Positions 45,001-48,000 of a stretch of 63,271 nucleotides of DNA are shown here, piece by piece. Position 1 is the stretch's first letter. Each line of letters starts with the position of its first letter. This stretch comes from a virus (Duplodnaviria > Heunggongvirae > Uroviricota > Caudoviricetes), in IMG/VR virus record IMGVR_UViG_2939521961_000016; one strand, given 5' to 3'. A program made the position numbers.

Positions 45001-48000
45001 ACTTTCCGGATGAGGGCGATGCATTAATATGGTGTGGTTGATTTCAGCATTGAAAAACCGCACTCTTGACCCCTGCATTTCCTTTTTGACATATCCCAGA
45101 GAGGAAAACAAAACGACCAGCTCATCCCATTCAAACGTTTTTTTACTGTTTAAAAATTTTGCCAGTAGCTTATCTGCTTTCCCCATGCCCACATAATCTC
45201 ATCTTCGCTACACTGTAACTAATTATAGTTACATGCAGTGTTTTTGTCAAAAACCACCAACCCCGCAGGGTTCTATTTGACTCGTTACTGCTGTTCGCTT
45301 CTTGGTTTTTTTGCTTCCGACTTTCTCTATCAGTTTTGCTAATTTGCTTTTTGTTGTATTCTCTCCGGTGATACATTTAATTTCGCAAAATGCGGAGTAG
45401 AGCATGGCATATTCAGCTGCTGCCGTAGCTAACGCCTTTATTGATAAGGCTAAACGGGGAGAAATCAAAGATTTAACTCCGATGAAGCTACAAAAATTGT
45501 TGTTCTATACTCAGTCGTGGCATCTGAAACTATTCAACGGAAGGCCATTATTCGACGATCTGTTTGCGCGCTGGCCTTACGGGCCTGTAATACCGCACCT
45601 GTACCACATGTTAAAGAAATATGGGGGCGATGAAATACAGGAAATGATCAGCATCATCATTGATTCAGATGGGGAATGGAAACGAATCACACCGACAATA
45701 CAGAAGGGTGACACAGAAACCAGGAGGCTGATCGACAGAATTGTTGAGGTATACGGCAGCTACAGCGGAACCGAGCTTTCTAACATGACCCATGCACCAA
45801 ACGCGGCCTGGAGTAAAGGTCAACCTGATGGTGGCCCAATTCTTCATACTGATATGGCAAACCACATTCATTGATGTCTGAACTTGAAAAAATCACAATC
45901 CCGAACGGAGCAGCATTTCCAGGCACAGATATATCAAGCCTTGAAGATACGCCACCAACAACAGAATCTTCATCAGATGGAGATAATTTAAACGCCCAGC
46001 GCGCAGCAGATGCAAAATCTAACAGGGAATTAAGAGAAAAATTTGCAGAAAAAGCCTATAAAGTTGCCAAGTATGGGCTTTACTGGTGGGCTAGTGTTTT
46101 GTTGTTGTCTGCAACAGGCCGCGTCATGGGGAAAGAAATCTTTTCAGATGAAGTGCTCATTGCGGTGACCGCTGCTTCAACTCTGAATCTGTTCGCTGCT
46201 TTTCTTGGTGTTATCAGGGGGCTTTTCCCTCACGCCAAATCTCACACAGAGTAACCGGCCCCCGCGCCGGTTTTTCTTTACGCATCCTCCATCTTCATTA
46301 TCCTCGCTTATATTTTTTACATAAATAAATTAATCTAAAAATCAATCATATAGATTAAAATTAAATCAAATTATTAGCCTCACTATTGACTATGATCAGC
46401 TGAGCTTATTATATTTTACCCAAGCCAGAAACATCGCGCCCTTACACAGGGCTACATAAATCAGTCGTACGGCGCGACTTAACCCGCCGCAAAATGCTCT
46501 TTAACAATCTGGAGCTTTACAGCGTCAATGACCTGTTTAGACCCCTACACGTAAACGTGCTGTATCATCGGGTGCGATCCGGTCGATGAGAGAGTATCCC
46601 CGCGCGAGAGCGAGAACGGCGTGAGAACGGGCAACACTGGCAGGAAGTTGGCGCTGACCAATACAGGGAATGTTTTGGGGTGTGGTGAAGGGTTCATGGA
46701 CGGGAATATGTCGCACGTAAAGCGGCGAGGCCCGAGGGACTATTGCTGAAGATAAGTAGGCCGAATCGGGTCGAAATGGGTCTCCCACCTGCCACATCGC
46801 CAAAGCATTTCCGAGAAAGGACGGTATTGACTGCGTGTGATGTCGGGGGCTATATTTGGCGAACACCTTATAAAACGGGTGTCGGGATTAGGACCCCGCT
46901 GACAATCGAGGCGATACAGACGCGCCAGCGTCTTTTTTTGTATCGATATACACGCACATCTTATCAATGGTGGGCTGTATGGGGCCGACTTCGGTCGGGC
47001 TGGTTCCCTTGATTGCCAGTAGTCCTAACCCTGTACAGTCCACCGCCAGCGAGCTTAGGACCTCCTGCGGTGGTTCTCAATCACCAATCAAGGAGGCTGC
47101 CATTATGGCTACTATCCCTGCCCTTTCTCAACCTGAAATCACCATTACCAATGGTCGCGTTGTCACAACGTCTATTGCTATTGCTGAATTTTTTGACAAG
47201 CGGCACGACGACGTTTTAAAAAAAATCCGATTGATGGATTGTTCTACGGAATTTAACGCCCGCAATTTTGCGGACGTTACCTACACCGACGCCAAAGGCG
47301 AACAACGCCCAATGTACCAAATCACCAAAAACGGATTCGTTTTTCTGGTGATGGGCTTCACCGGCAAAAAAGCAGCTGCATTCAAGGAAGCCTACATCGC
47401 TGAATTCGATCGCATGGAAAAACAGCTATGGGAACAGAAACAACTGGCCCTGTCTTCTCCTGCGATGAATATCAATTTCCCTTTGTCGTGGTTTTCTGAG
47501 CATCACCCCTACGCCACGATGAATTATGTTGATCGAAAAACATTGCAGCTTGATACCTCCGTCTTATTCGACATGCCAAGCCCTGCAATGCGCATATTTA
47601 ATGAATTACGTCGCAACGGCTATAACGTTGACGCCGCTGTCGCTGAATTTAACGCCTTCAAACATCTGACGGAAGAAATGCGCCGTACACTACAGGATAT
47701 TTCAAGATTGTCAGATCAAAATGCCCGAAAAGGCTTCTCTGTAAGCCTCTAAAGAACTAATAGTTTGACAAAGAACTAATAGTTTGACAATGCCGCAGCG
47801 CTTATCGCATACTGACCGCACTACAACGTCAGCGGTCAACCGCACCCGATAGCTTTGCGGCTTTTTTATGCCTGTTCACAGGTATCGCCATATCAATGGC
47901 GGGTCGAGAGAGCCTAATACAACACCCTTTCGGGAAATACGCTCCGCCGTCTGACGCGGTAGTTGAAGCCCGCCACCCCACTAAGGTGGCAGTCAATACT

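Follow-up and report, generated by a model that had tools for sequence, protein, structure and literature searches.

The 63,271-nt stretch of viral DNA analysed here (IMG/VR record IMGVR_UViG_2939521961_000016, Caudoviricetes; hereafter the window) carries, beside its cI gene, two overlapping genes that we name panA (45404-45874, + strand) and panT (45874-46254, + strand). This pair is quite likely a type II toxin-antitoxin (TA) module of the PanAT class with a T3-type membrane toxin, located in the slot beside cI of a prophage encoding Shiga toxin 2 (Stx2). The TA reading is an instance of a published class and not a new hypothesis, and the first of the two genes carries a Panacea label in RefSeq. 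A prophage of E. coli JNEC-KY204 (NZ_AP045180.1) matches the window at 100% identity. The window contains a Stx2A coding sequence (motif at approximately 37324, - strand) and a StxB-like motif at approximately 36221 (region about 36221-37732, - strand), preceded by the usual Met/Arg/Arg tRNA cluster (tRNA-Met, tRNA-Arg(tcg), and tRNA-Arg(tct), 37481-37732). The Stx2A motif and the tRNA cluster together identify the window as an Stx2-converting lambdoid prophage.

The original prediction proposed a Panacea (DUF4065) gene joined to a small membrane protein gene by a TGATG stop-start overlap. Both open reading frames (ORFs) and the overlap are read directly from the sequence, and RefSeq has the same two coding sequences (CDSs) in NZ_AP045180.1. 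The 156-aa product of panA (WP_096858767.1, "Panacea domain-containing protein") is indeed a Panacea protein: residues 29 to 136 match Pfam PF13274 (SocA_Panacea) with E = 6.3e-22 and 79 bits, against a cut-off of 25.7, and the protein matches PHROG 1281 with E = 4e-41. With the NCBIfam SocA equivalog model NF047745 it scores 87 bits against a cut-off of 190, so that it counts as a Panacea protein and not as an orthologue of SocA. PanA lacks an N-terminal helix-turn-helix (HTH) or PAD1 domain and is thus a stand-alone antitoxin of the bare Panacea kind, designated "noNTD" by Kurata et al. Among 34 aligned homologues, the GPV motif (G60-P61-V62), W57, and Y67 never vary, and H130 and W136 hardly do. 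The GPV motif, which lies on strand beta2, is required for neutralisation by PanA (Kurata et al. 2022, PMC8832971). A PDB sequence search with PanA returned nothing significant.

The 126-aa product of panT (WP_096858766.1, "hypothetical protein") matches PHROG 33656, a family listed there with unknown function, from end to end (E = 3.7e-84). Neither Pfam nor PADLOC contains a family that it matches, and NCBIfam gave only a chance match (E = 0.056). Homologues with 43% to 95% identity occur across Enterobacterales, and a profile search of 1.84 billion representative proteins retrieved 726 clusters (defined at 50% identity) at E ≤ 1e-3, 148 of them at E ≤ 1e-10. Family alignments show a variable, acidic N-terminus (residues 1-45) that is predicted to be disordered, followed by a conserved, basic, and amphipathic juxtamembrane helix (residues about 51-66; R..LR..FA.KAYKVAKY in the window, R..LR..[YF]A.KAY..A in the family), which is the most conserved soluble part of the protein. 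The first hydrophobic stretch, TM1 (about 68-85), leads via a loop with an invariant-like SD at positions 91-92 into a very conserved second transmembrane (TM) segment (TM2, 94-118; VLIAxTxAxTxNxxAAFLGVIRGLFP) that ends in AAFLGVIRGLFP. An AlphaFold2 model built from 73 sequences has residues 1-35 disordered, a helix at 36-84, a loop at 85-91, and a second helix at 92-117; its mean predicted local distance difference test (pLDDT) score is 66, with 80 to 86 in the helical core.

PanT is likely to have two TM helices, as the model predicts. TM2 is clearly hydrophobic (19-residue Kyte-Doolittle mean of 1.96), while TM1 is marginal, with no 19-residue window passing 1.2 and a mean of about 0.9 when calculated by hand. 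Of the predicted topology, the charged N-terminus, TM2, and the modelled hairpin stand, and the claim of two TM helices has to be softened at TM1. A PDB sequence search with the PanT profile gave nothing significant. Foldseek found 0 matches of the model in the PDB, which is to be expected for a helical hairpin of moderate confidence. A TTG start at 45871, which would give a 127-aa protein, was rejected, as the ATG at 45874 is used by RefSeq and is common to the homologues.

Although the second protein had been thought to resemble no named family, it belongs, in addition to PHROG 33656, to a published toxin cluster. Kurata et al., who gave the Panacea domain its name, validated nine pairs of PanA and PanT (PNAS 2022, PMC8832971), one of which comes from Shiga toxin-producing E. 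coli (STEC) O31 (PanA WP_000287252.1, PanT WP_000019185.1). The O31 PanT has predicted TM helices and shuts down transcription, translation, and replication together; it causes strong membrane depolarisation and SYTOX Green uptake and is neutralised by its cognate PanA (PMC8832971). The T3 cluster, which contains the O31 toxin and a toxic Vibrio cholerae member, is described as having a charged N-terminus followed by a C-terminal TM region (PMC8832971). Residues 1-66 of the window PanT, with 12 D/E and 9 K/R, fit this description. Dataset S1 of the same study lists WP_093558531.1 and WP_093558530.1 of Massilia (now Pseudoduganella) namucuonensis as a T3 PanA/PanT pair (PMC8832971), and two of our homologues, P0129 and P0335, are exactly these proteins. 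The window PanT is 41% identical to WP_093558530.1 (BLASTP E = 4e-24; profile E = 2.7e-33), and the window PanA is 54% identical to WP_093558531.1 (E = 9e-55). Homology to this pair places the window pair in the same homologous family as T3, so that, judged by sequence, PanT belongs to the T3 cluster via one shared member.

The two genes travel together. A Panacea gene lies directly 5' of the panT homologue in all 14 contexts inspected (Enterobacterales, Pseudomonas, and metagenomes). These include apparently non-mobile chromosomal sites in Dickeya (-1 overlap) and Pseudomonas, a Salmonella prophage where the pair sits beside tail-fibre and colicin-like genes (-1 overlap), an Enterobacter prophage at smpB/ssrA, and a lambda-like E. 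coli prophage with the pair between DinI and the tail fibre. Others are an E. coli integrative and conjugative element (ICE), with the pair between conjugation genes, a phage-plasmid in which it directly follows an S24 repressor, the ssrA island of E. coli M8, beside DinI, and two metagenomic lineages (-1 overlap). The 1-nt overlap thus recurs in Dickeya, Salmonella, E. coli, and metagenomic homologues; in the ICE, Enterobacter, and Pseudomonas homologues the overlap is 4, 8, or 14 nt. E. coli accounts for five of the variants among these contexts. Identity to the window proteins drops in parallel for PanA and PanT, from 79/76% in Serratia via 68/67% in Dickeya to 54/41% in Pseudoduganella, which indicates inheritance as a unit. 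Both genes are conserved over hundreds of clusters, far beyond chance, and among close alleles both are under purifying selection (pN/pS, the ratio of non-synonymous to synonymous polymorphism, of 0.04 to 0.31 in the three closest alleles, with small counts). When complete E. coli genomes were searched for distant DNA matches, at least four other diverged PanA/T3-type PanT cassettes emerged in this species (locus L020, 1501-2438; L021, 1501-2354; L022, 1435-2291; L019, 2501-3357). They lie in the ICE, in the phage-plasmid, beside DinI at ssrA, and between DinI and the tail-fibre genes of the lambda-like prophage, all four with accessions different from WP_000019185.1 and WP_000287252.1.

The anatomy of the locus is that of a self-contained cassette of about 1 kb in a variable slot near cI. 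Homology between alleles begins about 140 bp 5' of panA, at about 45265-45270, and runs rightward into the phage backbone, so that a leader (45265-45403, + strand), which probably holds a promoter, moves with the pair. Compared with the Stx2-phage and JNEC-KY176 alleles, this leader is nearly invariant from approximately 45325 onwards and differs per phage further to the left. It contains a Shine-Dalgarno sequence (GGAG, 45392-45395), 8 nt 5' of the panA ATG, and a candidate extended -10 element, TGaTACATT (45369-45377; TG at 45369-45370, one nucleotide, and TACATT at 45372-45377), which was read by eye. It is probable that panAT has a weak promoter of its own within the conserved 140-bp leader. 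At the junction of the two genes (TGATG, 45872-45876, + strand), one base belongs to both the TGA stop (45872-45874) and the ATG start (45874-45876), and the sequence reads CATTGATGTCT. No GGAG, GAGG, or AGGA occurs in the 30 nt 5' of the panT ATG, i.e., there is no motif resembling a Shine-Dalgarno sequence, and the arrangement suggests that translation of panT is coupled to that of panA. The cassette is closed by an intrinsic terminator (46253-46282, + strand; stem AACCGGC/GCCGGTT, 6-nt loop, T-rich tail) whose stem starts within the panT TAA stop codon. Its folding energy is -14.8 kcal/mol (z = -3.6), with none of 200 shuffled sequences as stable, and among three alleles the stem is invariant and variation is confined to loop bases. 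Two minus-strand ORFs in the region (45247-45468 and 45665-45871) were rejected; they are unannotated and conservation lies in the plus-strand frames.

The pair sits in a variable slot between cI and a Rha antirepressor gene, 3' of cI, at the map position of lambda rexAB. The original prediction had described this site, beyond cI and hicAB, as a hotspot, and comparison with sister prophages agrees: STEC prophages with the same backbone carry different cargo here. Twenty-three deposited Stx2/Stx2a phages (Oslovirus Lyz12581Vzw among them) and about 14 complete STEC genomes have a pair 96% to 97% identical, which is preceded by a type II restriction-modification system in place of hicAB; in JNEC-KY176 a HicB fragment lies ahead of the pair. 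Yet other prophages with this backbone have hicAB, in some cases accompanied by an SDH-family protease, and of panT they retain just the final 66 nt together with the terminator. The slot is a genuine cargo-exchange hotspot, from which panAT can be lost. The segment 44262-45264 occurs among same-backbone STEC prophages (loci L002, L003, L005, L024, and L025) in mix-and-match variants: an Eco57I-like methylase with a BsuBI/PstI endonuclease, a TM-anchored protein with hicAB, a HicB fragment, and the TM-anchored protein with an SDH-family Clp-fold serine protease and hicAB. The 66-nt panT remnant is unannotated and lies directly 3' of hicA in several STEC prophages without panAT (L024, 5001-5066, and L025, 5001-5066, equivalent to window positions 46189-46254; 97% to 98.5% identity). 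This sequence is a deletion scar, left after panAT had been present and was then lost.

For the mechanism we propose the following scheme. The two genes would be co-transcribed, probably from the weak promoter in the leader, and, as sequence and folding show, transcription ends at the terminator immediately after panT. Lacking a ribosome-binding site and beginning on the stop codon of panA, panT would be translated only by ribosomes that have just completed PanA, and such coupled translation would keep the toxin at or below the level of the antitoxin. PanT would adopt an N-in/C-in hairpin in the inner membrane and, when free, may, to judge from homology within the family, depolarise and permeabilise the membrane and stop all macromolecular synthesis, as does the O31 member of the same published cluster. 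Ernits et al. (2023) showed by mutagenesis that a bare Panacea protein neutralises a membrane PanT of Bartonella via the N-terminal tail and the helix preceding the TM region (PMC10440598). Modelled on this interface, cytoplasmic PanA would bind the N-terminal tail of PanT and the basic helix before TM1, and thereby block insertion or oligomerisation of the toxin. In a lysogen, the module would most likely either kill cells that lose PanA or in which a superinfecting phage inactivates it, as in Rex-like abortive infection, or stabilise the prophage.

Several points weigh against a TA module with a depolarising toxin. The link to a validated toxin runs via shared membership with one T3 member, and T3, a cluster built with jackhmmer, is possibly heterogeneous. 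In E. coli, eight candidate PanTs showed no toxicity (PMC8832971), and the toxicity of the window allele and of the Stx-phage allele is a property that we infer. TM1 is weakly hydrophobic and the AlphaFold2 model is of moderate confidence (mean pLDDT of 66, as given above). A consensus scan of the interval between hicA and panA found no plus-strand sigma-70 site. Finally, sister prophages have lost the pair and retain the 66-nt remnant, so that panAT is dispensable.

What the module does for the phage is less clear than what it is. A Rex-like abortive-infection role is attractive because of the position, the defence-type neighbours, and the predicted depolarising effector, and addiction or hitch-hiking is equally compatible, given the spread over ICEs, phage-plasmids, prophage ends, and plain chromosomal sites. 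A role in defence is accordingly a tentative proposal. In its most specific form, the pair would functionally replace RexAB in this Stx2 phage lineage, with PanA as the sensor: a phage protein or the shut-off of host synthesis upon superinfection would inactivate PanA, and PanT would then collapse the membrane potential and abort the infection. We consider this replacement possible, though doubtful. The same holds for a purely selfish module that offers no protection against other phages and acts in addiction and stabilisation or merely hitch-hikes in a recombination hotspot, a reading that we would also put forward only with hesitation. The selfish reading accounts well for the presence of the cassette on an ICE and a phage-plasmid, at prophage ends near tail fibres, at the ssrA site, and at the apparently non-mobile sites of Dickeya and Pseudomonas, and an addiction role and a link to rearrangement hotspots were discussed by Kurata et al. 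(PMC8832971). It also agrees with the fact that we found no report of an anti-phage phenotype of any PanAT system in the literature searched, and that PADLOC, which has no model for PanAT, matched neither protein. However, sister prophages have deleted panAT and yet survive, which makes addiction weak on an evolutionary timescale, and the slot not only occupies the rex position but also has neighbours of the defence type (restriction-modification and hicAB). Moreover, Ernits et al. proposed Panacea as a sensor domain, and RosmerTA, another membrane-depolarising TA system, has been shown to defend (PMC10440598).

Two further readings change the molecular identity of the pair. PanT might be no toxin here at all, acting instead as a membrane anchor or as a superinfection exclusion (Sie) factor that blocks DNA entry, with PanA as its cytoplasmic partner or regulator. 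Small prophage membrane proteins encoded near the repressor are often Sie factors, as exemplified by SieA and SieB of P22 and SieB of lambda, and both the weak hydrophobicity of TM1 and the non-toxic PanT candidates of Kurata et al. (PMC8832971) would suit such a protein. Nevertheless, we regard this as improbable: PanT is homologous to a cluster that holds a demonstrated depolarising toxin, its family also occurs at non-phage chromosomal sites, and antitoxin-first coupling without a ribosome-binding site is what one expects if excess PanT is harmful. Even more remote, and in our view very improbable, is a type VI TA system like SocAB, in which PanA would act as an adaptor for ClpXP and continuously hand over the toxin to be degraded instead of sequestering it. 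SocA is the founding Panacea protein, RefSeq names the homologue in Lyz12581Vzw "SocA family protein", and the best NCBIfam match of PanA is the SocA antitoxin model. That match, however, falls far below the equivalog cut-off, and the partner is a predicted membrane hairpin without a Pfam family and not of the SocB type. In addition, the other PanAs that were tested neutralise independently of ClpXP or Lon (PMC8832971). A PanAT module with a T3-type toxin remains our preferred reading of the pair.

Around the cassette, the immunity region runs from a cro-like HTH gene (43197-43436, - strand) and cI (43542-44261, + strand) via a gene for a 53-aa "transmembrane anchored protein" (44349-44510, + strand), immediately 3' of cI and in the same orientation, to hicB/hicA (44597-45186, - strand). 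The 53-aa protein is also encoded in a sister prophage whose cI allele differs, and it may be a small prophage-expressed membrane factor. A perfect sigma-70 consensus promoter (TTGACA, 17 nt, TATAAT; 12/12) at 45250-45222 (- strand) reads into hicA-hicB; it lies back to back with the panAT leader and looks unusually strong for a TA operon. To the right of panAT and its terminator follow the Rha antirepressor CDS (46979-47752, + strand), a second antirepressor-type protein with an AntA/ORF6N N-terminal domain (48553-49185, + strand), kil, gam, recT, and exo.

Two observations concern the antirepressors. Rfam places an isrK Hfq-binding RNA at 46863-46938 (+ strand; 61.7 bits) and a C4 antisense RNA at 46963-47050 (+ strand; 78.9 bits, gathering score 45), together with a weak c4-a1b1 target match. 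The two RNAs lie just 5' of, or overlap, the start of the Rha CDS, and isrK is flanked by a promoter-like site (46827-46856) and a terminator-like site (46918-46933). The arrangement looks like the immI-type antisense control of an antirepressor in P1/P7, here at the place where a lambdoid phage would have pL/N. Furthermore, Rha and the AntA/ORF6N protein differ in their N-terminal domains and have the C-terminal approximately 100 aa in common. In a local alignment they are 57% identical overall and much more so over the last 95 residues (E = 7e-55), which suggests domain shuffling onto a common effector module.

Since the molecular class has already been published, the value of the present case is contextual. 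Stx2a phages of clinical importance (O145, O111, O103, and related lineages) are shown to have a probable membrane-depolarising TA module in the immunity slot that is expressed from the prophage, where restriction-modification, hicAB, and protease cargo is exchanged as well. Both the ecology of Stx phages and the fitness of their lysogens would be affected if the module kept other phages out or stabilised the prophage. Should it indeed replace RexAB, it would give Panacea systems their first demonstrated function against phages and would help to determine the range of phages able to co-infect Stx lysogens or recombine with them. The locus offers a natural and easily tested case for what Panacea senses. 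For annotation, PHROG 33656 and the RefSeq "hypothetical protein" are now linked to the PanT T3 cluster.

Among known systems, Caulobacter SocAB shares with the window pair an antitoxin with a Panacea domain. It differs in that the window PanA does not reach the cut-off of the SocA equivalog, its partner has no relationship to SocB, and the adaptor mechanism is not general for PanAs. The Rex system of lambda includes a membrane protein and acts with loss of membrane potential. Like panAT, rexAB consists of two genes, one for a membrane protein, in the prophage-expressed immunity region downstream of cI. RexB has four TM helices, however, whereas PanT is a predicted two-TM hairpin whose expected effect is likewise loss of membrane potential. 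The systems have no sequence relationship: neither window ORF matched RexA or RexB in Pfam, PADLOC gave no match either, and what they have in common is the map position. Closer in architecture is the PanT(D11/T12):PanA pair of Bartonella choladocola (apis), with its bare Panacea antitoxin and its membrane-depolarising toxin that has a disordered N-terminus and a short helix before the TM region, a layout found in the window PanT too, but the Bartonella toxin belongs to another cluster (T12/D11), and a relation between T3 and T12 was merely suggested by Kurata et al. (PMC8832971). The O31 pair differs from that of the window in its +22 nt intergenic gap, in its classification as "NotPhage", and in its accessions; the window allele lies in the immunity region of an Stx2 prophage and is linked to O31 through shared membership of the T3 cluster. 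With the T3 PanAT systems of Kurata et al. as a whole, the window pair shares a stand-alone Panacea antitoxin encoded first, a small toxin with a charged N-terminus and a C-terminal TM region, a bicistronic organisation with usually overlapping genes, and the 41% and 54% identity to another T3 pair.

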